In this document: piece after piece, positions 25,681 to 56,838 of the stretch | How the letters are laid out: the number at the start of each line of letters is the position of its first letter | Position numbering within the stretch: the stretch's first letter is position 1 | Origin: Patescibacteria group bacterium | GTDB lineage: Bacteria > Patescibacteriota > Microgenomatia > UBA10105 > UBA927 | Direction of reading: 5' to 3' | NCBI GenBank assembly: GCA_023379025.1 | Contig: JAMCTH010000003.1 | Span: 17,114 to 81,113 of the forward strand | Length of the DNA stretch: 64,000 nucleotides | Translations under genes and position numbers: made by a program | Notes under the pieces: model-generated | Told to the model about the DNA's origin: nothing | Database searches by the model: none | Seen by the model: the letters and a program-made list of their open reading frames with translations, nothing else

Positions 25681-25866
25681 TTAGTCAAAAATTACTTTAT
25701 TTGAGGAGTAATTTTTTCTGTAGTTTTCGACAATCTCCATCTGCATCTTGTTAGATTCATGCAAGGCACGTTTAATTATCCGCTTTTTTTCTTTTGCGGG
25801 GTAATCAAAGTATGAACGACCCGTTGATACTTTGCCGGTAAGCTTCCTGATAATATTCCTGATCAT
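25681..25866 (-). CDS. Small basic hypothetical protein (61 aa) coupled to the zeta-like gene
   Basis: It lies in the AT-rich island, and its ATG overlaps the zeta-like 3' ORF stop as ATGA. I recognised no motif. Confidence 0.3.
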   Translation of the reverse strand: MIRNIIRKLTGKVSTGRSYFDYPAKEKKRIIKRALHESNKMQMEIVENYRKNYSSNKVIFD

Positions 25867-26578
25867 ATCTCTAATTTATATTGATCCAATGCCTTAGACA
25901 AGGATTCTGGAGTATACCCCAAATTTACATACTTATCAACATTATGCACGTTAAAATCAGACTTTTCAATACCCTTCAGTATGTTCTTCTTAATAACAGT
26001 AACCTCTATTTCTGGGTATACTCGCTTAATTTTGGCTACTGTATCTAAGGCGTCAAAAAAAGATTTTAGAAAAAATCCTTGGGTATAGGTCTTCCTTCTA
26101 ATTTTTCTCTTTTTTTTGTTAATCCCCACGATACCAACGGATCTTGATAAATATATACAATTGATATTTTACGCTTATGCTTAATACACCTTTTAATATT
26201 AGCTTCTGCATGATCATATTGAGACATTGTGGAGTCAAGCAAAAAATCAATATCATTTGCAAATACATGGTCAAGTAATTTGTTTACCCCCGCATAAGCC
26301 GCACCCTGAATTTCCATAGCATTTGTCTTATTGTATTGCGGAAGGAAATCCCTTATTTCATCGGCATCTATCCGAACAATATGGCGTGAATTATCATGTT
26401 CACATAGCTGCTGAATAAAGGCTTTAGAATATTCAGTTTTTCCAGCACCTGGAGAGCCAGACATAAAGAATGCTGCGGGGTTCGAAACTGTTAGATAAAT
26501 ATCGGGATCAGCGAAACGTTTAATGAGTTCCTTCTTGTGAGATCTAATAAACAGTACGGCATCATCACTTTTACTCAT
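25863..26578 (-). pseudogene. Zeta-toxin-family P-loop kinase gene interrupted by a -1 frameshift (or slippage site)
   Basis: The 5' ORF 26066..26578 has a Walker A motif GSPGAGKT and an RIDADEIRDFLPQY segment like zeta/PezT. Its 3' continuation is a second ORF, 25863..26129, in the -1 frame. The two frames meet at an A8 run, acaaaaaaaagag. Confidence 0.6.
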
Positions 26579-26735
26579 TGCGGTTAATTATACAACATGA
26601 TTATTTAGCAAACCTATCTGTAGGTAATTCACCATACGCTCTGTCGATAAGAATCGATACAACTCCACCCACGAGGCTATGTCTGTGTTCGAAAATCACT
26701 CCCTCCGCCTCGTCTCCTCAAAAAAACTATCCTGC

Positions 26736-28214
26736 TTATTTCTTCCACTCTTCCGTTGCGCGGTAGACGGATTCGGCTGTGACCGGTATCCATCCTGCCC
26801 GGGAGAGTTCGGCGCTGGTCGAGCTGGTCAGGTCCACCACCTGGTACCCGAGTTCTTCCCCGGCAGCAACCGGACGTTTGAAGCGCCCCGAGTAGGTTGC
26901 GATCCCGACTCCCATGGCAAGTCCGTCCGCGGAAAGTTTCCCCGAGGCATCCAGGTAGAGAGCAAGCGGTGCACTGACTCCTACGGTTTTGTACTTGAAA
27001 TCATAAACGGCAAATGTTTTTCCCGGGTAATCAGTGATAAGCTTGTTCGCCCAGCCACCGGTTTGAATCGCCGTGAAGTTTGATGCCTTCGCAATCTGTT
27101 GGACCGATGCCCACACCGAAAGCATAACTACTGCCGCGGTTATCGCGACACCAAGACTTTTTTGCCAGCGGATGAGCCGCGATAGCACCCAAGCCGAGGC
27201 AAGGATTACGAACGGGTGCGCGAATACGAGATAGCTGGAAAAAAGCGGGGTCCGTACATACCGGAGCGAGAGAATGAAAAGGAGAAGCGAACCCAGTATG
27301 TACCCCCAGTATTTCGGCAGATCCCGGCGCAGGGCGGAGACGGCAGCGGAAACCCCTACTCCTCCCATCAGCGCCATACCGACCCACTTATTTCCTCCGG
27401 TTATCAATCCCCATTCCCCCGGCCAGAAAGAAACGAGGTAGGTAAGCCATCTTCTTCCGAGCATTTCATAGGTCACACGGTACTGGCCTACCGTGTAGTA
27501 GCCGATAAACCCGCGGACATTGATAAACTGGTGCAAAAGGTCAAAAAGAACAAGCGGCAGTAACGGAAGCGTGAAACCGACGAGAAAGAGTGCCGTTGCT
27601 GTCGTTCCGGGAAACCCCCAGAGGAGGACGAGTACCGGAAGGGTAAAAAGAAGTGCCGCGCCTTCCAGGTGTATACTCGCCGAAAGCGCAATGAGAAAAC
27701 CCGTAAGGAAAAGGTACCGGGCCTGTCTGGTTTTTCCCCACCGGATACCCGCCCAGATGACCCCGAGGGCGCAGAGCCCAAGCGGCGACTGGTTTGTGAG
27801 ATTTACGGACTGCCCGATCGCGGCGGTTGATACCGCGGCCAACGCTCCTGCGATAAGTCCCAGGCGCGGGCTTTCCATTTCGCGCCCCACCATGTAGATC
27901 ATAAATACAAACAATACGGACAGGCACGTCATGGCAACCCATGGTGCAATAAGTTCTCCACGCCCTAAAAACGTTCCGGCCATGATGAACCAGTACCATT
28001 CCCCTCCGGTCTGGAACGGTCCGGCGGAAGAAAACGGACCCAAAAGCGGAAGTTTATGGGCCGCCAGGGCAAACCGCGAAAGGAGTGCGTCATGCGCCTG
28101 GTCATAGGCAAGCCCCCAGCGGGACGGATAGTCCACAAACCGTAAAAGAACGGAAGCAAGGAGAATCAGGGGAAGAAACAGACGGTCACGGCTTACCGGG
28201 GTAGATCGTTTCAT
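26736..28214 (-). CDS. Family-C GT-C fold membrane glycosyltransferase
   Basis: The loop-1 motif is YDQAHDALLSRF...LLGPFSSAGPFQTGGEWYW. The start is trimmed from 28373 to Met54 at 28214, which gives an ATGA overlap with the upstream GT2 gene's stop. Confidence 0.55.
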   Translation of the reverse strand: MKRSTPVSRDRLFLPLILLASVLLRFVDYPSRWGLAYDQAHDALLSRFALAAHKLPLLGPFSSAGPFQTGGEWYWFIMAGTFLGRGELIAPWVAMTCLSVLFVFMIYMVGREMESPRLGLIAGALAAVSTAAIGQSVNLTNQSPLGLCALGVIWAGIRWGKTRQARYLFLTGFLIALSASIHLEGAALLFTLPVLVLLWGFPGTTATALFLVGFTLPLLPLVLFDLLHQFINVRGFIGYYTVGQYRVTYEMLGRRWLTYLVSFWPGEWGLITGGNKWVGMALMGGVGVSAAVSALRRDLPKYWGYILGSLLLFILSLRYVRTPLFSSYLVFAHPFVILASAWVLSRLIRWQKSLGVAITAAVVMLSVWASVQQIAKASNFTAIQTGGWANKLITDYPGKTFAVYDFKYKTVGVSAPLALYLDASGKLSADGLAMGVGIATYSGRFKRPVAAGEELGYQVVDLTSSTSAELSRAGWIPVTAESVYRATEEWKK

Positions 28215-29131
28215 GGTTCGGATAGGAGTCGTCTGTCGGAAACAGCTGCCGATGCGGCGGCGCATTTCCTGCTTCGGAGTATCGCGGGACAGAGGATACA
28301 CGCGCGGGCAAACCCCAGAAGCATCGGCATGTCTCCTCGAAAGACTGCACGGATCAGATGGTACGGAAGCCACAGAAGGTGGCTCATCATGAGCCCCGTG
28401 TCCGTAATGTTTTTCCAGATAAAGATATACTGGTTCCGGTATGCAATAGTTGAAACCGTATTCCCGGAAAACTTCTGCCGGATAGCACCGGTCTCATGGT
28501 AGTGCCGGACAACGCTTTTTCCTTCAAACGCTATCCGGTACCCTGCTTTCCGCGCGCGGTAGGAGAGATCTATATCTTCCCAGTAAAATGGATTGTACAG
28601 AAGATCCATTCCGCCCAGCCGGTCCCAGATGTCTTTACGGAACATCGCGCTCCCGCCGGAGGCCCAGGATGTGTCGCTTCGACCGGTGTCTCCTCTCCGG
28701 TGTACTGCCACACCCCGCTGCCATGTCATGATTCCCCGGCCGCGCTCAACGGTCTGCCCGTGTTCCATGCTTTTATCGAGAAACCCGACGGCGAACATAT
28801 CCGGATCGGAGAAATGAGCGATGCCGGGAGGCAGATAATCCTTCTCCGGCTCAATATCACTATTGAGAAGTACGACTATCGGCGTCGTACTTTCGGCAAC
28901 ACCGCTATTGACTGCCGCGGCAAATCCTCCGCGTGTTCTCCGGCGGATGACACGTATGTCGGGAAACTTCCCGGCAAGATAGGTGCCGGTGCCGTCATCG
29001 GAAGCATCATCAACCACAACGATCCTGCTTTTGCCGGAGTAAGCAAAGACCCGCGGGAGATGTTTTATGAGGAGCTCCTTCCCGTTCCAGGTCGGGATAA
29101 CGATGGTGATATCTTTTGTCGTGTAGTTCAT
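28211..29131 (-). CDS. GT2-family glycosyltransferase
   Basis: 306 aa with ITIVIPTWNG and VVVDDASDDGT GT-A motifs. Confidence 0.75.
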   Translation of the reverse strand: MNYTTKDITIVIPTWNGKELLIKHLPRVFAYSGKSRIVVVDDASDDGTGTYLAGKFPDIRVIRRRTRGGFAAAVNSGVAESTTPIVVLLNSDIEPEKDYLPPGIAHFSDPDMFAVGFLDKSMEHGQTVERGRGIMTWQRGVAVHRRGDTGRSDTSWASGGSAMFRKDIWDRLGGMDLLYNPFYWEDIDLSYRARKAGYRIAFEGKSVVRHYHETGAIRQKFSGNTVSTIAYRNQYIFIWKNITDTGLMMSHLLWLPYHLIRAVFRGDMPMLLGFARACILCPAILRSRKCAAASAAVSDRRLLSEP

Positions 29132-31431
29132 AGGCCCGATATCCGGTAGCTTACCGTATGCCGTCCTGCCGGCACGACGACCCCGGCATACAGGTAATTT
29201 GTTCTGTACACCGGCACTCCCTTGCCGTCAACAGCAGCCCGCCAACCGGGCAGGAAACTTATGCCGATTACAAGAAGCCGCGGGACGGCAACGGATACAT
29301 CCGCCGTAAGACCGGCATCGGTATACGATGCAAGCACTACATGCTCATCTGAATGTATCGGAAGCGACAATACGGGGACCACCCCTTCGACAACAGCGCC
29401 GTATCCGGAGATAAAGCCGGGCCGGAACATACGGGCAAGCGCCTTTTCTCCGGTTTCCGCGGTATCCACTTCCCGGGCCAGATACACTCTCGGAAGCGCA
29501 CGGCTGTCTTCATAGACAATGGTCTGTCCCTCGGAAAACACCTTTCTGAGATAGGGTTTGTGGAGCTCCTCGAGACTTAGGACATAGCGCGCACCGAAAA
29601 GCGGAAACACCGGAGACTCCGTATTGGTGAACGTGATGATGCGGTTGAACCCAAACGGCGGCCGGACGTCGGGTTTGCCGCGTTCGGAAACGGCCGCAAG
29701 TTCTTCATACCGCGAGAAGTAAAGGGGGTCGTACCCTCCGATATCCTCTATACCGTAGTATCCTGCGGTATTCGGCGGCAGGAGTCTCGGGTCAAGGCTT
29801 GCAACCCGGAAGGGCTTGGGCTGTTTCTCGAGAAAAAGGAGGACCGGAGTTTCCGGGAAAAAGTAGCTCCGCGGCGTAAACGGCGTGAATTTGCCGGCAA
29901 AACGGAAAAGGTCAAAAACGACAAGAACCAGAAGTGCGCCGGAAAGTAGTCCGGAAATAAACTTCCTCCCCCCGAATATCCGGAAAGCCAATAACACAGC
30001 CAGAGTCGCTCCGGTAAGTACGGCCGGCAGGATCAGATTTCTCCGGCTGACGAGGAGGTCCGTCGCAAGATTCGGCATATGGGAGAAACCTCCGGCAAAT
30101 TTCGTAACAAGAAAAAGAAGGAGGAGCGCTGCTCCAAACAACACTGCAAGTATGGCCGGGGCGCGATCCCGTTTTTTGAGCCACACGTCAAATCCTATGA
30201 CGGCAAGGACGGCGAGCGAAAAGTCTACAACCACCATAAGGCGCGTCGGCTGGAGAACGGACCAGACGGGTATGTGCAACCGGTACGGCAGGGAGGATAT
30301 GCCGTCCGGAAGCATCAGAAGAAGTGCTGCCAGAAGACCCGCAACCCAAAACCACACCCGTTTTCCTCCTACACGGAGAGCGGCATAAAACGCAAATATG
30401 AGCGGTATGATCCCGATATAGCCTACGAACTCTCCGTAGTTCCAGACTCCCCAGTAATTCATGGTTGCCGGATTGCCGAAAAAGTCCGGAGCCAGAAACT
30501 GTAAGAGATTCTGCCAGGGAAGAAACCATCCGGACTGCATCCACTGGTCCCGGGAAAGGACGCGGGATGATACAGATATAAACTCCGCAACCGGAAGCCA
30601 CTGGAAAAGCGTGAGAAGTACGGCTATGCTTGCCGCCGTAGCTACGGTCAATACCCCTTCCTGAACCCGTGAGGTTTTGAGGAATTTTCTCTGCAACCAG
30701 ATCCGGGCAAGGACGTATGCGGCCTCAACAAGTACTGCATAGAGAAATACCTGGCTGTGACCCGCGAAAAACTGGCAGGCAAGCGATCCCGCGAGCACCA
30801 TAAACCACACGGCCTTGTTCCGGGACTGCCGCTTCTTTCCGGCATAGGCAAAAAGGTTATCTGCCGAAAGCAGTATAAGCGGTATCCAGAGTGCCGTATG
30901 GACAATCGTCCCCCAGGTGAGCCACGCGACGGAAAAACCGCAAAAACTCCATGCCGCCGCTCCGAGAAAGGATGCCGGCGGACTTATGCCCGTATTCCGG
31001 AGGAAAAGGTAGAGGAAAAACCCTGCAAGAAGCGGCGTCAGCACTATGAGCGCGGTCCATGCCTCGGGAAAGGGAAAGAGGAAAAACAGAATATTCAGAG
31101 GATAGAGCGCTCCGCTCTGGATATTGCCGATAAGCGATGTCCCGGAAAACGCATAGGGATTCCAGAGGGGCAGCGTCCCGCTTTTCAGATCGTCAACAGC
31201 GATCTTCCTCCAGGGAATCTGCTGCCGGACGGGATCGGTAATGAGAAAATTTTTGTACGGGACGCCGCGGGGATTGGTCGCGGCATAGAGGTCCCGCCAC
31301 GGATAGTAAAGCCCGATCAGCGTATCTGTCGGTACGGGTATGCGGCCCCGGAGAATTCCCGGCAGGAAAAAGCCGACCGCAACGGCAAACATTATGCAGA
31401 GCATGACAGCGTCATAGCGCATACGCCTCAT
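29128..31431 (-). CDS. YfhO-family membrane glycosyltransferase (family E)
   Basis: The motif is LPLWNPYAFSGTSLIGNIQSGALYPLN. The start is trimmed from 31593 to Met55 at 31431, which gives an ATGA overlap with the upstream GT4 gene's stop. Confidence 0.65.
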   Translation of the reverse strand: MRRMRYDAVMLCIMFAVAVGFFLPGILRGRIPVPTDTLIGLYYPWRDLYAATNPRGVPYKNFLITDPVRQQIPWRKIAVDDLKSGTLPLWNPYAFSGTSLIGNIQSGALYPLNILFFLFPFPEAWTALIVLTPLLAGFFLYLFLRNTGISPPASFLGAAAWSFCGFSVAWLTWGTIVHTALWIPLILLSADNLFAYAGKKRQSRNKAVWFMVLAGSLACQFFAGHSQVFLYAVLVEAAYVLARIWLQRKFLKTSRVQEGVLTVATAASIAVLLTLFQWLPVAEFISVSSRVLSRDQWMQSGWFLPWQNLLQFLAPDFFGNPATMNYWGVWNYGEFVGYIGIIPLIFAFYAALRVGGKRVWFWVAGLLAALLLMLPDGISSLPYRLHIPVWSVLQPTRLMVVVDFSLAVLAVIGFDVWLKKRDRAPAILAVLFGAALLLLFLVTKFAGGFSHMPNLATDLLVSRRNLILPAVLTGATLAVLLAFRIFGGRKFISGLLSGALLVLVVFDLFRFAGKFTPFTPRSYFFPETPVLLFLEKQPKPFRVASLDPRLLPPNTAGYYGIEDIGGYDPLYFSRYEELAAVSERGKPDVRPPFGFNRIITFTNTESPVFPLFGARYVLSLEELHKPYLRKVFSEGQTIVYEDSRALPRVYLAREVDTAETGEKALARMFRPGFISGYGAVVEGVVPVLSLPIHSDEHVVLASYTDAGLTADVSVAVPRLLVIGISFLPGWRAAVDGKGVPVYRTNYLYAGVVVPAGRHTVSYRISGL

Positions 31432-32483
31432 GGTGATCCGGGCCTTTCGATAAGCGCATCGAAGCGCTTGAGAAATACCTCGACGCGGAAATCCCCAGCG
31501 CGACGGATGGCAGCACGGGAAACGGCTGCCGCTTCCTTCTCGCCTGCTATTATGTCTTTGGTTCTGCGGATGAGTTCCTCTTCCCCAGACCAAAGGAAGC
31601 CGTTTTGGCCGTCGGTCACGATTTCAGAAAGCCCGCCCCCCCGGTAGACAACCGGAATGCATCCGGCTGACATAGCCTCTACCGTACTTATGCCGAAATG
31701 TTCGGCATATAACGGCTCATCCTCCCCGTAGCCGGCCGCATGCCAATATACCCGCGCTTTCCGGTATAGCCGGATAAGCTCATCGTGACCCGCGTTCGGC
31801 ATGAGGGTAACCGGGAGATTTCCGACGGATTTCTCCAGAGTACGGAAAAATGGCCGGTCGCCTTCGAGAAGCCCTCCAGCGAGGACCAGTTTCCAGCCGG
31901 AGAGGTTTTTCTCTTTGACAAGCGCGGCAAACGCACGGATAAGGAGGTCCTGCTTTTTTGCGGTATGGACCGGGGTGAAACGTCCGACCGATAAAATCAT
32001 ACGTTCTTTTTCCTGCCCTTTCCCCGGAGAAATTTCCGGAACCGGCGGATAGATGACGGATGCTCTCCGGCCGATGCGCGGATCCATGTGCCGCAGGGTA
32101 AAGTACGAATTGCAGACAATGTCGCCGTATCTTGCGAGTTTGAAGGGAGAAAGCGGCAGCTTCGGAAAAGGCATCTGAAAATGCAGGATATTTCGTCGGG
32201 CGAGCGAGGTCGGGATGCTACCATCACTCAATACGAAAATTATATCGAACCCGCTGGTTGCACGTAACTTTGTGAATAAACTTTTTATCCGGAATATATT
32301 TTGAGTCACTTTTATGTTCGATACATCAATACCGAGCCTTTCTGACAGCATGGATAAAACTGAAGGATCATCCCAGAACACCCGGACGTCATGCGTTTTC
32401 GCCCAGTGGGCAGCAAGCGTCAGAATATACCGCTCTCCTCCGCCTGCGGTAGGCAGATATGGGCTATAAAAACCTATTTTCAT
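31428..32483 (-). CDS. GT4-family glycosyltransferase
   Basis: 351 aa. The segment EHFGISTVEAMSAGCIPVV is the GT4 E-X7-E region. Confidence 0.8.
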   Translation of the reverse strand: MKIGFYSPYLPTAGGGERYILTLAAHWAKTHDVRVFWDDPSVLSMLSERLGIDVSNIKVTQNIFRIKSLFTKLRATSGFDIIFVLSDGSIPTSLARRNILHFQMPFPKLPLSPFKLARYGDIVCNSYFTLRHMDPRIGRRASVIYPPVPEISPGKGQEKERMILSVGRFTPVHTAKKQDLLIRAFAALVKEKNLSGWKLVLAGGLLEGDRPFFRTLEKSVGNLPVTLMPNAGHDELIRLYRKARVYWHAAGYGEDEPLYAEHFGISTVEAMSAGCIPVVYRGGGLSEIVTDGQNGFLWSGEEELIRRTKDIIAGEKEAAAVSRAAIRRAGDFRVEVFLKRFDALIERPGSP

Positions 32484-34897: not shown

Positions 34898-34947
34898 TCG
34901 AGGCGCATATATTCACGATCTTGGGACAGGAGGCGTTTGAGAGAAGG

Positions 34948-35700
34948 CTATGTTCTCTGGAGCTCCCAAAGTTTGGCATAGGTGACAAACAGGGAAAACC
35001 CCTGGTATATGCTCTCGATAAGTCCCCGGGTACCGGCACGCCATCCACCCTGACGGACATAGGAATCCCAGAATCCGGTGGCCATGACGCGAAGAAGTCT
35101 CCACCACACAACATTGGGGTGCCCCGCGCGCATCCTGAGATCCGCTTCAACCGAAGACCATGCGTTGGTCTTGGCAAGCATCTCTTCGAGATTGCGGTGT
35201 GTGCGATGGATCAGGAACGTTTTGAATATGCCGGTTTTCCCGCGGATTTGGGCAGTCTCATGGAGTTTCCCTGCCCATCCGAGAAGTGCGTCTTTTCTCA
35301 TGAGACGGATCATGCCGTCCCGGTACGGCCAATGTGCCCCGAGGTAATAATTATCCCGCGGTATGGTGTACGCAACGGGGGATATTCCCTCGCGGTACTC
35401 CTGCATGGTCCTCCGTATTTCTTCAGTAATCTCCGGAGTAACCCGCTCGTCCGCATCGATATAGAAAAGCCATGGGGAACGGGCCCGCTGAGCTCCGAGC
35501 ATACGGAGGGCGGAAAAATCCCCGGACTTCCCTTCTACAACGGTAGCGCCGAGTTTTGCCGCAAGCGTACGTGTCTCATCCGTTGAGCCGTCGTCAACGA
35601 CGATGTATTCCCGGGCCCACGGCATTCCGGACATGACATCCGCAAGCTGCCGTGCCTCGTTTTTGGCAATCGTGATAACGGAAATATCTAGGCGTTCCAT
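34948..35700 (-). CDS. GT2-family glycosyltransferase (LPS-core-like type)
   Basis: It has ISVITIAKNE and VVDDGSTDET motifs and is a paralog of 8150..8926. The start is trimmed to Met14 at 35700. Confidence 0.7.
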   Translation of the reverse strand: MERLDISVITIAKNEARQLADVMSGMPWAREYIVVDDGSTDETRTLAAKLGATVVEGKSGDFSALRMLGAQRARSPWLFYIDADERVTPEITEEIRRTMQEYREGISPVAYTIPRDNYYLGAHWPYRDGMIRLMRKDALLGWAGKLHETAQIRGKTGIFKTFLIHRTHRNLEEMLAKTNAWSSVEADLRMRAGHPNVVWWRLLRVMATGFWDSYVRQGGWRAGTRGLIESIYQGFSLFVTYAKLWELQRT

Positions 35701-36602: not shown

Positions 36603-36605
36603 ATG

Positions 36606-37223: not shown

Positions 37224-37235
37224 ACCTCAATGACG

Positions 37236-46257: not shown

Positions 46258-46283
46258 GTAGCGAACGTAAACGCTTCTCTCTC

Positions 46284-47039: not shown

Positions 47040-47071
47040 ACGTTTCTGTCACGCTCTGTGTGAACCGCGGT

Positions 47072-48679: not shown

Positions 48680-48685
48680 AACGGG

Positions 48686-49798: not shown

Positions 49799-49810
49799 AT
49801 CGATCGGAGC

Positions 49811-50770
49811 CTACACCCGTTCGCGCCAATAGTTGAGGAGGTCTTCCATGGTTTTTTCAAACGGAATTCCCGCTTTCCAGCCGGTCTTTTGGGTAAATTT
49901 AGTATTATCGCCGATTAAGACCGGAACATCGGATGGGCGCATCCGCATCGGATCTTCCTGTATCTTTACCTTCACTTTCGAATAGGACAGAAGGAGATTG
50001 AGCATGTCGCCGATCCTGATGGCGTTGCCGGTACAGATGTTATACACGTCTCCGCAGTCGCACTCCGTCACGGCGGCAACGTATGCTTTCACCATATCGC
50101 GGACATCCGTATAATCCCGTTTGGCTTCCAGGTTTCCGACACGGATGACCGGCTCCTGCTTCCCTTTTTCTATCATCGCAATCTGTTTGGCGAAGTTCGA
50201 CTCGGCAAACGTTTCTCCTCTTCTCGGCCCCGTATGGTTAAACCCGCGGGTCCTCACGATTTTTACTTTATAGGACTGAAAATACTGGTATCCCAGGTAA
50301 TCCATCGCAAGTTTTGAAACGGCATACGGCGAAAGCGGCCGGAGCGGATTCGTCTCCCTGATCGGCAGTTCATCGGACAGCACCAGCCCGTACTCCTCGG
50401 ACGAACAGGCAATCTGGATGACCGGATCGATGTTTGCCTGGCGCACGGCCTCGAATACGTTCGCCGCTCCGACGATGTTCACTTCAAGGGTCACGGACGG
50501 CGAAACCCAGGACGTCGGGACAAACGACTGGGCAGCCAGATGAAAAATATAGTTGGGTTTAATGCGCGAGAGGGTCGTATACAGACTGTGCGAATCCAGA
50601 AGGTCCGCGTCCTCAAGATGCAGTTTGTTAATGATTTTATCTATGTGGTCGAGCTTGCTTCTCGGCCGGCAGAGCCCGTGTACTTCATACCCCTGCGACA
50701 GGAGAAGCTCCGCAAGATGGCTTCCGACGAAACCCGCGATACCCGTGATGAGTGCCCGTTTTGTTTCCAT
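49811..50770 (-). CDS. gmd: GDP-mannose 4,6-dehydratase-like SDR (NAD-dependent epimerase/dehydratase)
   Basis: 319 aa. It has an ITGIAGFVGSHLAELLLSQGYEVHG Rossmann motif and an SPYAVSKL Y-xxx-K segment. FNHTGPRRGETF and LGNLEAKRDYTDV match segments I recall from Gmd. Confidence 0.6.
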   Translation of the reverse strand: METKRALITGIAGFVGSHLAELLLSQGYEVHGLCRPRSKLDHIDKIINKLHLEDADLLDSHSLYTTLSRIKPNYIFHLAAQSFVPTSWVSPSVTLEVNIVGAANVFEAVRQANIDPVIQIACSSEEYGLVLSDELPIRETNPLRPLSPYAVSKLAMDYLGYQYFQSYKVKIVRTRGFNHTGPRRGETFAESNFAKQIAMIEKGKQEPVIRVGNLEAKRDYTDVRDMVKAYVAAVTECDCGDVYNICTGNAIRIGDMLNLLLSYSKVKVKIQEDPMRMRPSDVPVLIGDNTKFTQKTGWKAGIPFEKTMEDLLNYWRERV

Positions 50771-50819
50771 GGTATTCTCCTCCTTTATAGACTATACCCA
50801 TTATACATAGTCCCGTATC

Positions 50820-52118
50820 CTACATTCTGCCGACACCGTAATACGTATACCCCATCTGCTTGACTGCGGCAGGTTCATAGATATTCCGTCCGTCAAACAA
50901 CACGCGGTTTTTGAGTCCTTTGGCAAGGCGGACAAGATCAAGCTGCCGGAATTCGTTCCATTCGGTAACGACGGCAACCGCATCCGCGCCGTCCACAGCC
51001 TCGTAGGCGCTTTTGGCATAGAGGACGCCGTGGGGCAGCACACGCTTCGCGTTGTCAACCGCGATCGGGTCATAAGCCGCAACCTCTGCACCCTTTTTAA
51101 CGAGTACCGTGATAATGCCAATGGACGGTGCTTCACGCATATCATCGGTATCCGGCTTGAATGAAAGGCCGAGTACCGCGATGCGTTTGCCTCTGAGCGT
51201 CCCGCCGAAATGCCGGAGGATTTTATCCGTAAAATGCACGGCGGCTTCCTTGTTTATCGCATCCACGGCTTTCAGAAGCTGAAAATCATATCCCTTGGCT
51301 CCGGCAATCGCGATAAGTGCCTTTACGTCCTTGGGGAAACAGCTGCCCCCGTATCCTACCCCCGGGTAGAGGAAACTTCTGCCGAGACGGCGGTCGAGCC
51401 CCACGCCTTCGAGAACCTTTTCCGCGTCCGCACCCACTTTTTCCGACAGGAAGGCTATGGCATTTGCAAATGATATTTTCGTCGAAAGCAGGGAGTTTGA
51501 TGCGTATTTAATGAGTTCGGCCGTTTCTACGTTGCAGGGAACGGTCTTGCCGTCAATCGGCTTATGGAGTTCCAGAAGAAGATCCCTCGCCCGGTCCGAA
51601 GTGGTCCCGATAACGACGCGGTCCGGGTGAAGCGTATCGGAAATCGCCGTCCCCTCACGCAGAAATTCCGGAACCGAAGCAATCGCAAATGACGCGCCCT
51701 CCCGTTTGACCGAAGTAATGAGATCGGAAACGACGCTGTTCGTTCCCGGCGGGACCGTACTTTTGGTCACGATAACTTTATAGCCGACAAGCGCTTTTCC
51801 TATCGCTGTTGCGGCGGCACGTACGTGGGAGAGATCCGCTTCCCCTGTTTCTTTGGGCGGAGTGCCGACACAGATAAAAATAATGTCCGAAGGGGATATT
51901 GCCTCACCGTATTCCAAAGTAAAGAGAAGCCTTCCGGCTTTGGTGTTCCTCCGCACGAGTTCCTCAAGCCCCGGCTCGTAAAAGGGCATGACTCCTGCCT
52001 TGAGCCGTTCGATTTTTTCTTTGGTATGCCCGACAACCCATACGGTATTCCCAAGGTCCGCAAATACCGCTGCGGTGACTAACCCGACATAACCGTGACC
52101 GATAAACGAAATAGTCAT
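50820..52118 (-). CDS. ugd: UDP-glucose 6-dehydrogenase / nucleotide-sugar dehydrogenase
   Basis: 432 aa. It has an N-terminal GHGYVG NAD-binding motif and GGSCFPKD, the catalytic-Cys motif of the UDP-glucose/GDP-mannose dehydrogenase family. Confidence 0.8.
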   Translation of the reverse strand: MTISFIGHGYVGLVTAAVFADLGNTVWVVGHTKEKIERLKAGVMPFYEPGLEELVRRNTKAGRLLFTLEYGEAISPSDIIFICVGTPPKETGEADLSHVRAAATAIGKALVGYKVIVTKSTVPPGTNSVVSDLITSVKREGASFAIASVPEFLREGTAISDTLHPDRVVIGTTSDRARDLLLELHKPIDGKTVPCNVETAELIKYASNSLLSTKISFANAIAFLSEKVGADAEKVLEGVGLDRRLGRSFLYPGVGYGGSCFPKDVKALIAIAGAKGYDFQLLKAVDAINKEAAVHFTDKILRHFGGTLRGKRIAVLGLSFKPDTDDMREAPSIGIITVLVKKGAEVAAYDPIAVDNAKRVLPHGVLYAKSAYEAVDGADAVAVVTEWNEFRQLDLVRLAKGLKNRVLFDGRNIYEPAAVKQMGYTYYGVGRM

Positions 52119-52999
52119 GTGGAATGAATACGTGTGTTCCCGACCGCTCCGAGCGTTTTCAGACCCTCTTCAAATGTCGACATCCGTATCCCGAATTTGG
52201 TTATTTTATCATGTTCCAAAACCGCATGAAAGGGCCGGGGGGCACGTCCGCGGAAATACCGGGCGAATGAGGTTTCTTTCACAAGCGACTCGTCATATCC
52301 GAATGTCCGGGCGATACACCGGGCCGCGCCGTACGGAGACAGGGCATCTTCGCCGACCACATGATACAGTCCATGTGCGTCATTTCTGACCAACGAATCG
52401 ATTGCGCGCGCAATGTCATCGATATACGTCGGCATGAATAGCTGGTCCGAAGGCGAACTGATCTCCTGCCCTTTTGCAAGCTTTTCCCGGATCTTGCCGA
52501 CGAAATCGGGTTTTTTCCCGAGATGCGGACCGTAGGGATTTGCAATACGGAGGATCAGCGCCCTATCTCCGAGAACGGCAACGGCACATTCCCCTTCATA
52601 TTTTGTCACGCCGTACCAGCCCAGGGGATGCGGAATATCCTCCTCCGTATATCGGGGGCGGCTCCCGTCAAAGACATAATCCGTCGAGATATAAAGGAGC
52701 CGCTTTCCCGTCTCCCGACAGATCCGCGCAATCTCCTGTGTTGCACCGGTATTGACGCGCCAGGTCGTACCGGATGTTCCTTCCTCCCGTTCCCGTTCAG
52801 CACGGTCTACATCGGTCTGTGCGGCAAAATGCCAGACCCAGCTTGCCGGAGAAGCGATCATTGCCCGGCGGAGGGACGGACCGTCCGTAATATCAACGCC
52901 AGTTTCGAGACTGAGGTTTGCGAACGCGTAGCGGTCTCCCAGGAGTTCTGTCACACGCGAACCGACCATGCCGCTTAACCCTGTGCCCAGTATCTTCAT
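52115..52999 (-). CDS. rmlD: dTDP-4-dehydrorhamnose reductase
   Basis: The RmlD-like core has MKILGTGLSGMVG and YGVTKYEGE. The start is trimmed to Met23 at 52999, which gives an ATGA overlap with the rmlB stop. Confidence 0.7.
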   Translation of the reverse strand: MKILGTGLSGMVGSRVTELLGDRYAFANLSLETGVDITDGPSLRRAMIASPASWVWHFAAQTDVDRAEREREEGTSGTTWRVNTGATQEIARICRETGKRLLYISTDYVFDGSRPRYTEEDIPHPLGWYGVTKYEGECAVAVLGDRALILRIANPYGPHLGKKPDFVGKIREKLAKGQEISSPSDQLFMPTYIDDIARAIDSLVRNDAHGLYHVVGEDALSPYGAARCIARTFGYDESLVKETSFARYFRGRAPRPFHAVLEHDKITKFGIRMSTFEEGLKTLGAVGNTRIHST

Positions 53000-54015
53000 G
53001 TCATTCGGTTCCCGTACTGTTTGTTGTAATACTCCCCATACGCACCGGACTTCATGCGGTGCCACCAGTCGGTATGTTCTTTATACCAGGAAATGGTTGC
53101 CGTAAGACCTGCCGCCAGATCCGTTTCCGGACGCCAGCCGGTATCCCTTTCGAGTTTGGACCAGTCTAAGGCATAGCGACGGTCATGGCCCGGACGGTCT
53201 TTGACAAACGTCATGGATGACTCATCTGTCTTCATAAGCTTCAGGATGGTTTTCACGATCATACTGTTGGGTACGTGATCATCCGGCCCGCCGATGCAAT
53301 ACGTCTCCCCGACGTTCCCTTTCGTCAGGACCGCTTCAATCGCCCGCACGTGATCGGTCACATAGAGCCAGTCCCTGACGTTTTTCCCGTCACCGTAGAC
53401 CGGTACGGGCTTTCCCTCAAGCACATTGGTGATTGCCAGAGGAATGAGTTTTTCGGGAAACTGAAAGGGCCCGTAATTGTTCGAACAGTTGGTGATCGTC
53501 ACCGGCAGTCCGAACGAATGAAAGTATGCGTTTACCAGATGGTCCGAAGCGGCTTTGGACGCCGAATACGGACTTCTCGGATCATACCTGGTCGTTTCCG
53601 AAAATTTGTCCGACCCAAGAAGACCGAGCGATCCGTACACCTCATCGGTCGATATATGGTGGAACCGCCGGATGCCGCGTTTTCTCGCGGCTTCCAGCAA
53701 TACGCTCGTGCCGACAATGTTTGTCCGGACGAACGGAGCAGGATCGAGGACTGAACGGTCCACATGCGTTTCCGCAGCAAAATGAACCACGGTATCAATA
53801 CCCTCCATGGCGGCATAAACCGCGCTGCTGTCGCAGATATCCGCCCTGACAAACCGATAATGGCTGTTTCCTTCAAGCGTCTTCAGGTTTTCCGCGTTGC
53901 CGGCATAGGTCAGACTATCCAGGTTCACAACGTCATCATCCGGATGATGACCGGCCCAGTAGAGAATAAAATTGGTACCGATAAAGCCGGCTCCGCCGGT
54001 AACAAGCAGTCTCAT
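52996..54015 (-). CDS. rmlB: dTDP-glucose 4,6-dehydratase
   Basis: It has LVTGGAGFIGTNF, HFAAETHVDRS and YSASKAASDH motifs. The start is trimmed to Met25 at 54015. Confidence 0.85.
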   Translation of the reverse strand: MRLLVTGGAGFIGTNFILYWAGHHPDDDVVNLDSLTYAGNAENLKTLEGNSHYRFVRADICDSSAVYAAMEGIDTVVHFAAETHVDRSVLDPAPFVRTNIVGTSVLLEAARKRGIRRFHHISTDEVYGSLGLLGSDKFSETTRYDPRSPYSASKAASDHLVNAYFHSFGLPVTITNCSNNYGPFQFPEKLIPLAITNVLEGKPVPVYGDGKNVRDWLYVTDHVRAIEAVLTKGNVGETYCIGGPDDHVPNSMIVKTILKLMKTDESSMTFVKDRPGHDRRYALDWSKLERDTGWRPETDLAAGLTATISWYKEHTDWWHRMKSGAYGEYYNKQYGNRMT

Positions 54016-54044
54016 ATACCGCACACTGAATGTTTTTGTACCGT

Positions 54045-54518
54045 CTACGTTATATTTGCATTGGTTATCGGCATTCCCTGCACCCAATCATAGCCGATCT
54101 CCGTATCCTTATATGCGATTCTTCCTTCCTCCCGGGTGTCATAGGTTCCGCTCGTGACATACACCAGTTCTGCCGGACCCTTCAGAACCTTCAGGCCGTG
54201 GGCAACGCCGTGCGGAATTTTCAGTATGATATCTCGTCCTTCTTCGCCCAACAGGTACTCTTCCGTCGTTTTGTGCGTCGGTGATCCGGATCGTCTGTCA
54301 TGGAGGACTGCTTTGATCGTGCCTTTGACCACATACCACCAGTCAATCTGGGTCTTGTGGATATGCCACGCTTTGACAACACCGGTCACCATGGATGAAC
54401 GCGAAAGCTGTCCGAACCCTTCGGAAAAAAACGGATCCGTCACCCGTATGAGTTCTTCAAAAAATCCCCGCTCGTCCGGATGACGGACCAGTTCCTTTAT
54501 GGCAACGCCGTCTATCAT
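54045..54518 (-). CDS. rmlC: dTDP-4-dehydrorhamnose 3,5-epimerase
   Basis: 157-aa cupin protein with HPDERGFFEE, the RmlC signature, and WHIHK. Confidence 0.8.
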   Translation of the reverse strand: MIDGVAIKELVRHPDERGFFEELIRVTDPFFSEGFGQLSRSSMVTGVVKAWHIHKTQIDWWYVVKGTIKAVLHDRRSGSPTHKTTEEYLLGEEGRDIILKIPHGVAHGLKVLKGPAELVYVTSGTYDTREEGRIAYKDTEIGYDWVQGMPITNANIT

Positions 54519-55252
54519 AGTTTTCCGTCTTGTACCATCCGGGCCACCTGATTGTTGGCTTCGAGAAGTTCGTCAAAGGACGTACCGGCATCCACCCACC
54601 AGTCGATGATTTCGCAGGTAAGTTCTCCGGTAGACAGGTAAAAATTATTAAGGTCCGTTACTTCAAGTTCTCCCCTCCCGGAAGGCGATAGTTTTTTTAT
54701 GAACGAAAAAACCCGCTCGTCATAGATATAGATGCCGGTCTGGGCGATATCGGATTTGGGATGTTCCGGCTTTTCCTCGATAGAGCGCACCGTACCGCTG
54801 CCGTCCACTTCTATCACCCCGTACTGACGCGACCCGGTGTCCTTGTGGACGCCGAACACCATGGCTCCCCGGCCTTTCTGTTCAAATTTCCGTACTGAAG
54901 GCGCAAGGTCATGGTGGAAAATATTGTCTCCGAGAAGGACAAGAACCGGCTCATGATGGGCAAACTCCTCCGCAAGGGCTATCGCATCGGCTATTCCTCC
55001 TTTGGGATTCTGCTGTATGGCGTAGTAAAGCCGGAGACCGAACGCTTCTCCCGCTTTCAGCAGGTTGGCAAAATGCCCCGCATGATCTCCCGACGTCGTG
55101 AGAAGCACCTCCCTGATCCCTGCTTTTTTCATGGCCATCAGGGGGTAATAGATCATCGGCTGGTGATAGATAGGAAGGAGGTGTTTGTTGGTTACGAGCG
55201 TAAGCGGCCGCAGCCTCGTCGCAAGACCTCCCGCAAGGATAACGCCTTTCAT
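54515..55252 (-). CDS. rmlA: Glucose-1-phosphate thymidylyltransferase (short form)
   Basis: It has GVILAGGLATRLRPLT and LLGDNIF NTP-transferase motifs. The start is trimmed to Met19 at 55252. It overlaps rmlC by ATGA. Confidence 0.7.
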   Translation of the reverse strand: MKGVILAGGLATRLRPLTLVTNKHLLPIYHQPMIYYPLMAMKKAGIREVLLTTSGDHAGHFANLLKAGEAFGLRLYYAIQQNPKGGIADAIALAEEFAHHEPVLVLLGDNIFHHDLAPSVRKFEQKGRGAMVFGVHKDTGSRQYGVIEVDGSGTVRSIEEKPEHPKSDIAQTGIYIYDERVFSFIKKLSPSGRGELEVTDLNNFYLSTGELTCEIIDWWVDAGTSFDELLEANNQVARMVQDGKL

Positions 55253-55256
55253 AGTA

Positions 55257-55511
55257 TTAGATGCGCAGCACGGTCGACAGGAGGACAATGGCAAGCGCAC
55301 TGACAAGCATATATTCTATCACAACCTTCCGGTGGAGGTCGCCCCGTGCCGCATGATGGATGATTCCCCACAGAAAATAGGCAACCGACGTAACCGCTCC
55401 CACCAAAAACTGCGCCGTCGGATTTCCGCGCAGGACCCAAAAAAGCCCTAACCCGCCGCCCAATATGATGACCAGTATGGCAAAATGTAGAATTTTTTCC
55501 GGTGCTTTCAT
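55257..55511 (-). CDS. Small membrane protein (84 aa, 3 TM helices), unknown function
   Basis: Trimmed to Met39 at 55511, giving an ATGA overlap with the CAP-domain gene's stop. It is hydrophobic throughout. Confidence 0.4.
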   Translation of the reverse strand: MKAPEKILHFAILVIILGGGLGLFWVLRGNPTAQFLVGAVTSVAYFLWGIIHHAARGDLHRKVVIEYMLVSALAIVLLSTVLRI

Positions 55512-56464
55512 AGGATGCTCCCGCGGACAAATATCGCCATACCGACAAAAAGTACGCCAAGAAAAAGCAAATGCCCGACGCTGTGACCGGTCACGCGTAC
55601 CAACCGGCGTCTTCCGGCAAGCCATGCGTCAAGGAAAAGAACGGTAAGGAGAAACAGCAAAAATCCGGCGACCAGCAACCGGTTAAGGCCCGTTATGTCG
55701 AGAGCCGGGCTCGTCAATACCGATGAAAATCCGGAAACGACCGGAGGATTGTGGGAGAAGGAGGCTGCAGAAGGCACCTCGACAGCCTTAACCGCTGCGG
55801 CCGGTACGGGAGTGATCGCTAGAGTCGGATTTGTCGGCACCGGGGTCGGCGCGAGAGCCACAGTCTTGGCTGTAGTAGTCGGTGCGTTTCCTGCCAGTTC
55901 CGCGGGTGTTGCCCCGAACATCTGGACGACCAGCGTCGTTTCCTCGCCGTTTAAGGTTCCGTTGACGACGGCAAAGCCTATGTCGCGGTACCCGGTCTTG
56001 AGCATATTTTCCCTGTGGCTTGGCGATGCCATCCAGGCATCAACCACGGCCTGGCTGGTCGAAAAATTCTTTGCGAGATTTTCGCCGGCCAGTGCATAGG
56101 AATACCCCGATCCCACGATAAAATCCCATGGGGTCTTCCCCTCGGGACTCTGGTGCGCCCAGTAATTATTGGCAAACATATCCTGAGCCTTGGCAGCTGC
56201 GGCATTGTCCAGCTCACCGTTTATGCTAAGAGGCTGTAAACCATTGGCTTCGCGCGCCGCATTGGTATCGGCAAGGAGCGCATCAATCCTGATATCCGTC
56301 GCATACCCCAAAACATTGGGGTCAACAGCGTGCACCAAACCGAAGAAAACCCTGAGCCCGGCAAACACGAGAACGAACAAAAAAAGCGCATCAGGGTGGA
56401 GCACTCTCGCACGGTGATTATTGGTCTCATGCGGCATGAGGAGATGACGAAGGATATGTCCCAT
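55508..56464 (-). CDS. CAP/SCP/PR-1-like domain protein with an N-terminal TM helix, a Pro/Thr/Ala linker and a C-terminal TM anchor
   Basis: 318 aa. The CAP-like core has LSINGELDNAAAAKAQDM and NYWAHQSPEG. It also has a linker TPVPTNPTLAITPVPAAA and a C-terminal hydrophobic segment. Confidence 0.6.
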   Translation of the reverse strand: MGHILRHLLMPHETNNHRARVLHPDALFLFVLVFAGLRVFFGLVHAVDPNVLGYATDIRIDALLADTNAAREANGLQPLSINGELDNAAAAKAQDMFANNYWAHQSPEGKTPWDFIVGSGYSYALAGENLAKNFSTSQAVVDAWMASPSHRENMLKTGYRDIGFAVVNGTLNGEETTLVVQMFGATPAELAGNAPTTTAKTVALAPTPVPTNPTLAITPVPAAAVKAVEVPSAASFSHNPPVVSGFSSVLTSPALDITGLNRLLVAGFLLFLLTVLFLDAWLAGRRRLVRVTGHSVGHLLFLGVLFVGMAIFVRGSIL

Positions 56465-56505
56465 TCTTCTATGATAGACACACCGCGGGGAAAATAAAAG
56501 AGCGT

Positions 56506-56838
56506 TCAGGAGGAATACCGGTCATGTTCGTAATGGAGCGGAATGTCTTCGCCCGCAGGTTTTCCGTTGACCGGAACATCCAGGAGAAACCCAAGCATTT
56601 TCCCGACCGTCATACCGACGCGCAAGCCGGTAAATGATCCCGGACCGGTATTAACCCTAATCTCCGTCAGTTTTTTAAGCTCCAAATGGTTTTCTTTAAG
56701 GACCTTCTCAATCATCGGCAACACCATTTGTGCTTTCGCGCCCTGTTTAACTATTTTTGCTATTTTATTTCCTCCGATTCCAACACTAACGTTTATTTTT
56801 TCCGAATCGGAAGTATCAATAAAAAGAATATTAGACAT
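56506..56838 (-). CDS. tsaB: TsaB/YeaZ-like t6A biosynthesis protein, short form (N-terminal domain only)
   Basis: 110 aa. It has ILFIDTS and the TsaB/YeaZ signature TGPGSFTGLRVGMTVGKMLG. It stops after about half of a normal TsaB. Confidence 0.55.
   Translation of the reverse strand: MSNILFIDTSDSEKINVSVGIGGNKIAKIVKQGAKAQMVLPMIEKVLKENHLELKKLTEIRVNTGPGSFTGLRVGMTVGKMLGFLLDVPVNGKPAGEDIPLHYEHDRYSS

Follow-up and report, generated by a model that had tools for sequence, protein, structure and literature searches.

The ATGA stop/start overlaps in this DNA are, with a probability of roughly 80%, the ordinary operon packing of an ultra-compact CPR genome, and the genes that they join make up a large surface-glycan cluster rather than one complex. 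The overlaps themselves are real and far above chance. All 19 positions quoted in a preliminary description carry the tetranucleotide, as TCAT on the minus strand or ATGA on the plus strand, and at each of them TGA closes a long ORF while the overlapping in-frame ATG opens the next. In the glycan region (18-56838) of the window, i.e. the whole 64,000-nt stretch that was analysed, they account for 19 of 44 junctions (17 if two ambiguous ones are set aside). The base before TGA is A at 21 of 30 stops, against 16.3% A in third codon positions (binomial p = 9e-11), and among 53 genes 21 end in aTGA where about 3 are expected. The preliminary description had placed more than 15 ATGA junctions and thirty-plus minus-strand genes within 25681-56838. 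The first figure holds across the whole window, but inside that interval only 9 of 27 co-directional junctions are ATGA, as eight of the quoted examples lie within 3840-18366 and two in the plus-strand block. As to the second, 27 genes (26736-56838) are solid, the others being a zeta-toxin-like gene and two small ORFs.

The genes form three tight arrays, running from 19889 to 18 and beyond, from 19888 to 25546, and from 56838 to 26736. Functions were assigned from Pfam and NCBIfam, PDB sequence matches and paralogue families. The left array, in order of coordinates, comprises:

18..1115, minus: GT4 (Pfam Glycos_transf_1, 4e-35); its aTGA stop overlaps the next GT2 gene by 4 nt, beyond the window edge
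1119..1922, minus: GT2; 20-nt overlap with the upstream gene
1903..3147, minus: divergent Wzx/MOP-type oligosaccharide flippase, the window's second; about 10 TM segments; no match in its own Pfam search, homologues (PF01943/PF13440) named oligosaccharide flippase
3157..3843, minus: GT2, 228 aa from coupled ATG 3843 (ATGA junction 3840/3843)
3840..4892, minus: GT4
4870..6453, minus: GT-C family A; start 6453 (ATGA) or 6447, ambiguous
6450..7592, minus: MptA_B-like GT-C family E (PF26314, precomputed), paralogue of 45100; ATGA start 7592
7589..8137, minus: 182-aa single-pass protein, weak DUF5667 match; stop makes ATGA junction 7589/7592
8150..8926, minus: GT2; start 8926 (19-nt overlap) or 8908 (1-nt TAATG overlap)
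8908..10590, minus: GT-C family A; ATGA start 10590
10587..12086, minus: PMT_2-like GT-C family D; ATGA start 12086
12083..13777, minus: PMT_2 GT-C family C, 564 aa; 1-nt gap to the upstream stop, 99-aa Met1 extension rejected
13779..15452, minus: PMT_2 GT-C family C; ATGA start 15452
15449..17065, minus: PMT_2 GT-C family C, 538 aa from coupled ATG 17065; 108-aa extension rejected
17062..18366, minus: GT87/ALG3-like GT-C; start 18366 (ATGA) or 18318, ambiguous
18363..19889, minus: PMT_2 GT-C family D, the array's first gene; start 19889 or 19877

The divergent trio follows:

19888..21540, plus: PTPS_related GT-C family A (Pfam 1e-15), the first of the trio
21537..23909, plus: YfhO GT-C family B, 790 aa from coupled ATG 21537
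23906..25546, plus: PMT_2/PMT GT-C family C, 546 aa from coupled ATG 23906

The right array consists of:

26736..28214, minus: PMT_2 GT-C family D, the array's last glycan gene; coupled ATG 28214
28211..29131, minus: GT2; ATGA start 29131
29128..31431, minus: YfhO GT-C family B, 767 aa from coupled ATG 31431
31428..32483, minus: GT4; ATGA start 32483
32480..34852, minus: YfhO GT-C family B, preceded by the gap 34853-34947
34948..35739, minus: GT2; start 35739 or 35700
35688..36602, minus: GT2
36606..37223, minus: 205-aa protein without family match
37236..38183, minus: GT2; 13-nt overlap
38171..39628, minus: Wzx/MOP flippase (Polysacc_synt_3; Pfam 2e-52; NCBIfam MOP flippase)
39616..40365, minus: GT2; 23-nt overlap
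40343..42040, minus: PTPS_related GT-C family A; start 42040 (7-nt overlap), 42037 (GTGA) or 42016
42034..43575, minus: GT-C family A, the modelled protein; ATGA start 43575
43572..45092, minus: PMT_2 GT-C
45100..46257, minus: MptA_B-like GT-C family E, 385 aa; 46-aa extension rejected
46284..47039, minus: GT2
47072..48679, minus: PMT_2 GT-C family D, directly downstream of the DPMS-like gene
48686..49798, minus: polyprenyl-phosphate hexose synthase, GT2 plus GtrA/DPMS transmembrane domain (Pfam; full-length match to P. furiosus Dol-P-Man synthase 5mlz, E 9e-42)
49811..50770, minus: Gmd/Rmd-family sugar-nucleotide SDR; best PDB match 2pk3, GDP-6-deoxy-D-lyxo-4-hexulose reductase (E 4e-87); below all NCBIfam cut-offs
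50820..52118, minus: UDP-glucose 6-dehydrogenase (Ugd); ATGA start 52118
52115..52999, minus: RmlD, 294 aa from coupled ATG 52999
52996..54015, minus: RmlB (dTDP-glucose 4,6-dehydratase), 339 aa
54045..54518, minus: RmlC; ATGA start 54518
54515..55252, minus: RmlA, 245 aa
55257..55511, minus: 84-aa membrane protein, weak DUF5656 match; coupled ATG 55511
55508..56464, minus: CAP-domain membrane/secreted protein
56506..56838, minus: short TsaB/YeaZ-like protein, 110 aa, the array's first gene

This layout has the appearance of long polycistronic units. Gaps between genes stay within 12 nt in the left array and within 95 nt in the right one, and none of the intergenic gaps contains a terminator-like hairpin; in two of three scans, the total number of terminator-like sites is close to that expected from shuffling. 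The right array has a single sizeable gap (34853-34947), with a promoter-like site inside it (34897-34868); another such site (57021-56992) lies near the array's first gene.

A supercluster for the biosynthesis of cell-envelope glycan takes up nearly the whole window and no less than 61 kb of the contig. Its inventory covers dTDP-rhamnose and UDP-glucuronate synthesis, about 14 GT2/GT4 enzymes, two Wzx-type flippases, one polyprenyl-phosphate-mannose-synthase-like enzyme and 20 GT-C-type membrane glycosyltransferases. The GT-C enzymes fall into five paralogue families (A-E), with conserved acidic first-loop motifs. A model of family A (protein 42034..43575) matches only GT-C structures, namely STT3, AglB, PglB, ArnT, AftD and ALG9/12, with moderate confidence (pLDDT 60, TM-scores ~0.4). 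In the biochemical order that we infer, cytoplasmic enzymes would supply dTDP-L-rhamnose (RmlABCD), UDP-glucuronate (Ugd) and another activated sugar (the Gmd/Rmd-family SDR), GT2/GT4 enzymes would assemble lipid-linked oligosaccharides, and the flippases would export them. The Dol-P-Man-synthase-like GT2-GtrA enzyme, and probably some small GT2s, would load single sugars onto polyprenyl phosphate. With these lipid-linked donors, the GT-C enzymes would then extend or decorate a glycan or glycoprotein of the cell surface, working on the membrane's outer face. As read, the pathway is incomplete: the window yielded no initiating phosphoglycosyltransferase, Wzy polymerase or acceptor.

The source genome is that of an uncultivated, Gottesmanbacteria/Microgenomates-like CPR bacterium (Patescibacteria), and the closest Ugd relatives belong to Ca. 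Gottesmanbacteria and Patescibacteria MAGs (72-78% identity); synteny in relatives extends to both arrays. Patescibacteria group bacterium M1555_00405 is the deposited entry of the exact 414-aa protein. When a single mechanical gene caller is applied throughout, ATGA is found at 18 of 48 junctions in the window, 43 of 166 (26%) in loci of CPR relatives and 68 of 612 (11%) in non-CPR ugd loci; the window rate differs from that of the non-CPR loci (Fisher p = 6e-6) and not significantly from that of the CPR loci (p = 0.15). Among the relatives, the non-glycan side (15 of 52) equals the glycan side (33 of 104; p = 0.85), so that ATGA is a habit of the genome and not a property of the gene set. 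The abundance of ATGA, at ~40% of junctions, is a lineage-wide effect of genome compaction. The non-glycan part of the window has it at 0 of 7 junctions, a small sample that includes low-GC islands. In form, the overlaps resemble those surveyed by Huber et al. in 2019 and 2023 (PMC6728339, PMC10666635), with an upstream UGA over a downstream AUG in co-directional pairs and operon-like arrays. Their frequency is different, as overlaps of any length across 720 genomes have group means of ~15% typically and ~30% at most (PMC6728339). Since the window rate of 37-43% exceeds both values, some cluster-specific selection on the overlaps may operate.

Overlaps of this kind are the classic substrate of termination-reinitiation coupling, and experiments in bacteria and archaea have demonstrated it at such sites (PMC6728339). 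Having terminated at UGA, a ribosome can start again at the overlapping AUG, which would keep translation going along long polycistronic mRNAs in a genome most of whose starts have no strong Shine-Dalgarno sequence. The overlaps might instead have arisen neutrally in a streamlined genome, through deletion bias and the turnover of stop and start codons, without selection for coupling; we consider this reading rather unlikely. It agrees with the lineage-wide habit, with the equal Shine-Dalgarno strength of coupled and uncoupled starts, and with simulations in which 4-nt and 1-nt overlaps arise readily by codon turnover (PMC3887535). It also agrees with the lability of orthologous junctions, which appear in relatives as ATGA, a longer overlap or a gap; ugd and the SDR gene, for instance, are separated by 49 nt in the window and joined by ATGA in L003, L005, L009 and L011. 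Against it stand the reinitiation demonstrated elsewhere at such overlaps and the strong bias to exactly 4 nt (19 junctions, whereas 1-nt overlaps number 0-2 and 8-nt overlaps are absent). In addition, several ATGA junctions are kept across genomes although the flanking proteins are only 45-65% identical.

The preliminary description had taken the coupling to imply co-stoichiometric expression and to fit a multi-enzyme complex; on such a reading, the overlaps would enforce equal expression of the subunits of one large membrane-associated glycan assembly. This now appears improbable. The overlaps connect enzymes from different pathways and compartments: ATGA joins RmlD to Ugd, which serve two different nucleotide-sugar pathways, the CAP-domain protein to the 84-aa membrane protein, and soluble GT2/GT4 enzymes to polytopic GT-C enzymes. 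The Rml enzymes act as separate homo-oligomers. Some junctions are conserved as ATGA, in favour of a complex (rmlB/rmlD in 5 genomes, PMT_2/family A in 3, 182-aa gene/Mpt-like in 3), but many, such as ugd/SDR, are not kept, and the frequency in relatives is the same outside the glycan genes. ATGA runs do link consecutive membrane GT-C enzymes (18363 to 13779; 19888 to 25546) that could plausibly work side by side. Short overlaps are 1.6- to 8-fold enriched in genes for heteromeric complexes; nevertheless, of the gene pairs with tight spacing, 55-70% encode no complex subunits even in E. coli and H. volcanii (PMC10666635).

The coupled internal ATGs are better starts than those of the long Met1 extensions, as had been suggested, and three lines of evidence agree on this. 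A codon-usage model prefers the frame of the upstream gene in every overlap longer than 100 nt and scores all long extensions as non-coding. Paralogue N-termini align from the coupled ATG onward, with consistent lengths, and in the extension-carrying soluble enzymes (GT2 at 3157, RmlD) Pfam domains begin 1-10 residues past it. Independent gene calls, stored with source contig Logan SRR10278331_5359 and two shorter contigs, place the downstream start on ATGA at 17 of 19 junctions; the ambiguous ones are 6450/6453, where ATG 6447 was taken (sequence ATGAACATG), and 18363/18366, where ATG 18318 was taken (418 aa). Despite these two calls, and alternative starts a few codons away in several genes, it is most improbable given this agreement and the excess of A before TGA that the ATGA are coincidental and translation truly begins at upstream Met1 or other internal codons.

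The coupling is of a textbook kind, and the greater interest lies in the GT-C battery. Mycobacterial and corynebacterial envelopes (Ppm1, MptA/MptB, PimE, Aft, Emb) likewise employ many GT-C paralogues on polyprenyl-phosphate sugars, and the window has MptA_B-family and GT87 matches, with AftD, AftA and EmbC among the structural matches. However, sequence similarity does not go beyond family level, the lineage is another one, genes of an arabinose pathway were not seen, and a different glycan is probable. Archaeal and eukaryotic systems pair Dol-P-Man synthase with lumenal PMT/ALG transferases; here, the DPMS-like protein aligns full-length to P. furiosus DPMS, accompanied by PMT/PMT_2 and ALG3-like matches, but the host is bacterial, the relatedness is at fold level only, and an STT3/PglB sequence match is lacking. 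Gram-positive clusters for rhamnose-rich cell-wall polysaccharides (PMC9574508) also combine rmlABCD, GT2/GT4, a flippase and GT-C side-chain transferases in one locus; in contrast, the window has far more GT-C genes, and neither ABC-transporter rhamnan export genes nor an initiating transferase turned up in it. In GtrABC and CsbB/GtcA/YfhO systems (PMC8035078, PMC11127046), a GT2 polyprenyl-P-sugar synthase acts with a GtrA/GtcA flippase and a GT-C enzyme. The window similarly has YfhO- and PMT_2-type enzymes and a GT2-GtrA/DPMS fusion (48686-49798) directly upstream of a PMT_2 GT-C, but its host is a CPR bacterium and it gathers 20 GT-C genes in one region instead of one per system.

All 19 positions at which the preliminary description had placed a four-nucleotide overlap have the tetranucleotide, seen as TCAT at minus-strand junctions and as ATGA at plus-strand ones. 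At each of them a long ORF terminates in the TGA, and the ATG shares its frame with the long ORF that follows. The co-directional genes that they join are organized in three blocks:

18-19889, minus strand: left array
19888-25546, plus strand: trio of genes
26736-56838, minus strand: right array

In a gene model built from the ORF list, such 4-nt ATGA overlaps account for 19 of the 44 co-directional junctions across 18-56838, with 8 of 15 in the left array, both junctions of the trio and 9 of 27 in the interval 25681-56838. The earlier figure of more than 15 ATGA junctions thus stands for the window as a whole and not for that interval, to which thirty-plus genes had also been ascribed; its actual content is 27 solid genes at 26736-56838 plus one zeta-toxin-like gene and a pair of small ORFs. 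The base preceding TGA is A at 21 of 30 TGA stops, compared with 16.3% A at third codon positions (binomial p = 9e-11), and aTGA gene ends number 21 against about 3 expected by chance. TGA makes up 30 of 53 stops overall and 11 of 34 among genes with their stop outside ATGA junctions. Overlaps of other lengths also recur, with an identical 13-nt overlap at three junctions (35688-35700, 38171-38183 and 39616-39628) and a 23-nt overlap at two (4870-4892 and 40343-40365).

The choice of start codon determines how these junctions are read. A codon-usage model trained on the 3' two-thirds of ORFs was used to compare the long ORF with its upstream neighbor at overlaps longer than 100 nt. In every case, the model prefers the frame of the upstream gene and scores the extension to the first Met of the longest ORF (Met1) as non-coding (+39.9 versus -40.5 at 17062-17389; +22.7 versus -22.4 at 13779-14074). 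Alignments of paralogues start at the coupled ATGs, and only with those starts do lengths agree within the GT-C paralogue families (family B, 767-790 aa; C, 538-564 aa; D, 492-535 aa; E, 380-385 aa). Stored gene calls for the source contig and two shorter contigs, which include a 538-aa product called on the contig, match the ATGA start at 17 of 19 junctions. The caller disagrees at 6453, where it picked the ATG at 6447 (sequence ATGAACATG), and at 18366, where it picked the ATG at 18318 (418-aa product, compared with 434 aa from the ATGA start). The codon model, the paralogue alignments, the aTGA enrichment and the 17 independent calls bear out the earlier view that the long Met1 extensions are improbable and the coupled ATG is the better choice. 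On this evidence, the overlapping ATG is predicted to be the true downstream start, with junctions 6453 and 18366 ambiguous. For annotation, the lesson is that the longest-ORF Met1 is often wrong in such genomes and the coupled ATG preferable.

Intergenic gaps in the left array are all 12 nt or shorter, while in the right array the largest spans 95 nt (34853-34947), followed by gaps of 49, 41, 32, 29 and 26 nt. Three scans for terminator-like hairpins found none within any intergenic gap. The matches they returned are weak and located within membrane-protein genes that are rich in T; compared with shuffled sequence, their number is close to expectation in two scans (29 versus 24±6 and 36 versus 27.5±6) and above it in one (45 versus 24±6). 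Promoter-like sites are present at 57021-56992, upstream of 56838, and at 34897-34868, inside the 34853-34947 gap. Given the tiny gaps, their lack of hairpins and these two sites, a prediction of three or four long transcription units is plausible. At 19877-19930, the divergent starts of the left array (19889 or 19877, minus strand) and the trio (19888, plus strand) overlap or lie 10 nt apart, and the sole -10-like boxes, TATACT (~19861) and TATAAT (minus strand, ~19915-19926), fall within the coding sequence of the opposite gene. An origin of the trio 19888-25546 by inversion was rejected, as no boundary inverted repeats were found. Searches for tRNA and Rfam families gave no match anywhere in the window.

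The strength of Shine-Dalgarno (SD) pairing, calculated as the duplex energy with the anti-SD sequence, is similar at coupled and uncoupled starts (means of -3.6 and -3.1 kcal/mol, p = 0.32; random intragenic sites, -2.65). Values of -6 kcal/mol or better occur at 16-23% of ATGA-coupled and gap-separated starts versus 11% of random intragenic sites. Because SD use is weak everywhere, it does not discriminate between mechanisms, being compatible with reinitiation or SD-independent initiation and proof of neither. Most genes throughout the window have no recognizable SD sequence, and a very strong one is seen at a few starts (8926, 39628, 42040 and 50770).

A comparison with other genomes offers a broader view of the overlaps. 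The closest relatives of Ugd are found in Ca. Gottesmanbacteria and Patescibacteria (CPR) MAGs at 72-78% identity, and the exact 414-aa protein encoded at 1903-3147 is deposited under Patescibacteria group bacterium. With one mechanical gene caller used throughout, the share of ATGA junctions is 37.5% (18/48) for the window, 26% (43/166) for the loci of CPR relatives and 11% (68/612) for ugd loci outside the CPR. The contrast is significant between the window and the non-CPR loci (p = 6e-6) and not between the window and the CPR loci (p = 0.15), among which single relatives reach 11/18 (L003) and 8/19 (L002). In the relatives' loci, ATGA is found at 15 of 52 junctions on the non-glycan side versus 33 of 104 on the glycan side (p = 0.85). 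ATGA overlaps are a lineage-wide habit and, in relatives, no rarer outside the cluster.

In these relatives, the TsaB-like gene, the rml genes, ugd, the DPMS-like gene (48686-49798) and the first GT-C genes follow one another in a conserved order, and two further genomes share synteny over the left array. Conservation of the overlaps themselves, proposed earlier as a check, did not emerge: orthologous junctions are labile, adopting a mix of ATGA, other overlaps and gaps across loci of relatives (L002-L011, L085 and L086). Five genomes have ATGA at rmlB/rmlD and four have it at rmlD/ugd. Between ugd and the SDR gene (49811-50770) the window has a 49-nt gap and four relatives have ATGA; likewise, a 12-nt gap between a GT2 gene and a 182-aa gene is ATGA in L085.

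The preliminary description had taken the pervasive coupling to imply co-stoichiometric expression and to fit a multi-enzyme complex. In general, tightly spaced gene pairs are enriched for complex subunits, yet 55-70% of them are not (PMC10666635). Here, the ATGA overlaps join proteins of different pathways and compartments, and a complex is not supported by these mixed junctions, their lability and their equal frequency on the two sides of relatives' loci. Because the overlaps cross pathways, are not conserved at individual junctions and are equally frequent outside the cluster in relatives, they are best read as generic compaction of operons, with probable reinitiation coupling, in a streamlined CPR genome, rather than as a sign of a stoichiometric complex. 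ATGA/TGATG overlaps are near-universal and support termination-reinitiation, with overlapping pairs at ~15% in most groups and up to ~30% in Aquificae (PMC6728339), and overlaps turn over within orthologous pairs (bioRxiv 10.64898/2026.09.10.750558). ATGA coupling is already known and belongs to the textbook picture of compact prokaryotic operons; as such, the overlaps change little, and the gene content is more useful. Some CPR use code 25, in which UGA is recoded. Such recoding was rejected here, as TGA-terminated genes (e.g., rmlD) span full Pfam profiles and the next gene begins at profile position 1.

Gene identities were obtained from Pfam, NCBIfam and PDB sequence searches. The dTDP-L-rhamnose pathway is represented by RmlA, RmlB, RmlC and RmlD, accompanied by Ugd. 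The SDR gene belongs to the Gmd/Rmd family, its best solved relative being the GDP-6-deoxy-4-hexulose reductase 2pk3, followed by GDP-sugar dehydratases. Its assignment as UDP-xylose synthase (UDP-glucuronate decarboxylase) was discarded, with Rmd as the best PDB match and all scores below NCBIfam cut-offs. The window harbors ~14 GT2/GT4 transferases. Candidates for the lipid-linked steps are:

48686-49798, minus strand: GT2 with GtrA/DPMS membrane domain, end-to-end match with Pyrococcus Dol-P-Man synthase 5mlz (E 9e-42)
38171-39628, minus strand: Wzx flippase, Pfam/NCBIfam match
1903-3147, minus strand: divergent Wzx/MOP flippase, assigned from domains and names of homologues, no Pfam match of its own

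In the first of these, PF04138 GtrA_DPMS_TM (3e-17) is fused to the GT2 domain, and the protein also matches ArnC and the GtrB-like sll0501. The adjoining gene (47072-48679) encodes a PMT_2 protein (5e-13), and the order DPMS-like to PMT_2 is kept in L002, L003, L004, L009 and L011. The two Wzx/MOP flippases suggest at least two separate lipid-linked oligosaccharide lines.

Besides the Wzx flippase at 38171-39628, the window encodes 21 polytopic membrane proteins, of which 20 are GT-C-type and the other is the flippase at 1903-3147. All-against-all BLAST groups the GT-C proteins as follows:

Family A: PTPS_related-like, 5 members
Family B: YfhO, 3 members
Family C: PMT_2, 4 members
Family D: PMT_2, 4 members
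Family E: MptA_B-like, 2 members
Singletons: two, one PMT_2 and one GT87/ALG3-like

Because pairwise identity within families is only 23-37%, the duplications are old. Direct matches are to PMT_2, YfhO, PTPS_related, GT87/ALG3 and MptA_B, with remaining members assigned by paralogy. A crude scan gives 7-13 hydrophobic segments per protein, and the first extracytoplasmic loop carries conserved acidic motifs typical of GT-C, namely invariant HDG (A), DE (C) and D[QE] (D). A structural model of a family A member without a Pfam match (42034-43575; pLDDT 60, pTM 0.66) retrieves almost exclusively GT-C proteins from the PDB (STT3, AglB, PglB, ArnT, AftD, AftA and ALG9/12), with low TM-scores of ~0.4. 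Judged from these sequence and model comparisons, the 20 polytopic proteins are assigned to the GT-C superfamily, with moderate confidence for the family A model. Examples of packed GT-C genes are found at 4870-6453, 12083-17065, 19888-25546, 29128-34852 and 40343-45092.

On the contig, the cluster extends at least 4.2 kb to the left of the window (GT2, epimerase, GT2 and DegT aminotransferase); the right-hand side of the cluster is followed by the housekeeping genes FtsEX, release factor, Nramp and RuvCA. The TsaD/TsaB-family ORF at 56506-56838 has only 110 aa. Its counterparts measure 103-118 aa in seven of the eight relatives examined (among L002-L011) and 259 aa in L003; because the short length is kept, it is a conserved mini-protein rather than a fragment. 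Two low-GC regions adjoin the right array: a stretch at the convergent junction (25547-26735), which may be a decaying toxin module, and an island at 56900-59200 (~45% versus 54%). Their features are:

26066-26578: zeta-toxin/AAA_33-like gene covering only profile positions 12-158 of 199
25863-26129 and 25681-25866: small ORFs without family match
57062-58030: orphan acidic protein of 322 aa, no family
58058-58207 and 58319-58507: degraded short-chain dehydrogenase in two fragments
58835-59149 and 58663-58923: BrnT toxin and BrnA/CopG-like antitoxin

Further on, in the ORF 59848-60792 (314 aa), a TsaE domain takes up only the 162 aa at the C terminus, and the stretch 60337-61243 is either N-terminal extension sequence or a gene of its own that lacks annotation (ORF 60317-61159, without family match). 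Relaxed Pfam searches of 36606-37223, 57062-58030 and 60317-61159 gave no match. At 61244-62437, a 397-aa protein combines an N-terminal coiled-coil region (DUF3450/DivIC-like, below cut-off) with a C-terminal region resembling Peptidase_C39_2; it adjoins FtsEX and may be a cell-division-associated hydrolase.

The gene set as a whole is made up of modules that are already known, namely the rml pathway, Wzx flippases and transmembrane glycosylation by GT2 + GtrA + GT-C (PMC8035078, PMC11127046). Its most conspicuous trait, in a CPR genome, is an unusually large set of GT-C genes, 20 in number; literature searches on GT-C and glycosylation clusters in CPR/Gottesmanbacteria found nothing specific. 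The cluster can be described as a conserved surface-glycan supercluster, unusually rich in GT-C genes, of a Patescibacteria lineage that is uncultivated; it is a side result of modest interest and a reasonable target for glycobiology or metatranscriptomics.

Compared with the Wzx/Wzy-dependent pathway, flippases are matched twice, whereas no window ORF has a Pfam/NCBIfam match to an initiating phosphoglycosyltransferase, Wzy polymerase or chain-length regulator, which may be encoded elsewhere or be too divergent to detect. All parts of the GT2/flippase/GT-C three-component system have predicted counterparts here: a polyprenyl-phosphate GT2, a GtrA-type module and an adjacent GT-C. It is probably through its cell surface that the lineage depends on hosts. 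A bolder proposal, which we consider rather unlikely, is that this conserved supercluster of at least 61 kb in a ~1-Mb episymbiont-type CPR genome, with its 20 paralogous GT-C transferases, two flippases and DPMS-like donor synthase, would act as an extracytoplasmic glycan assembly line driven by lipid donors. Its product would be an elaborate coat of surface glycan or glycoprotein that might be central to attachment to hosts. If true, the scale of this assembly line would resemble that of the mycobacterial envelope or the ER-lumen ALG pathways.
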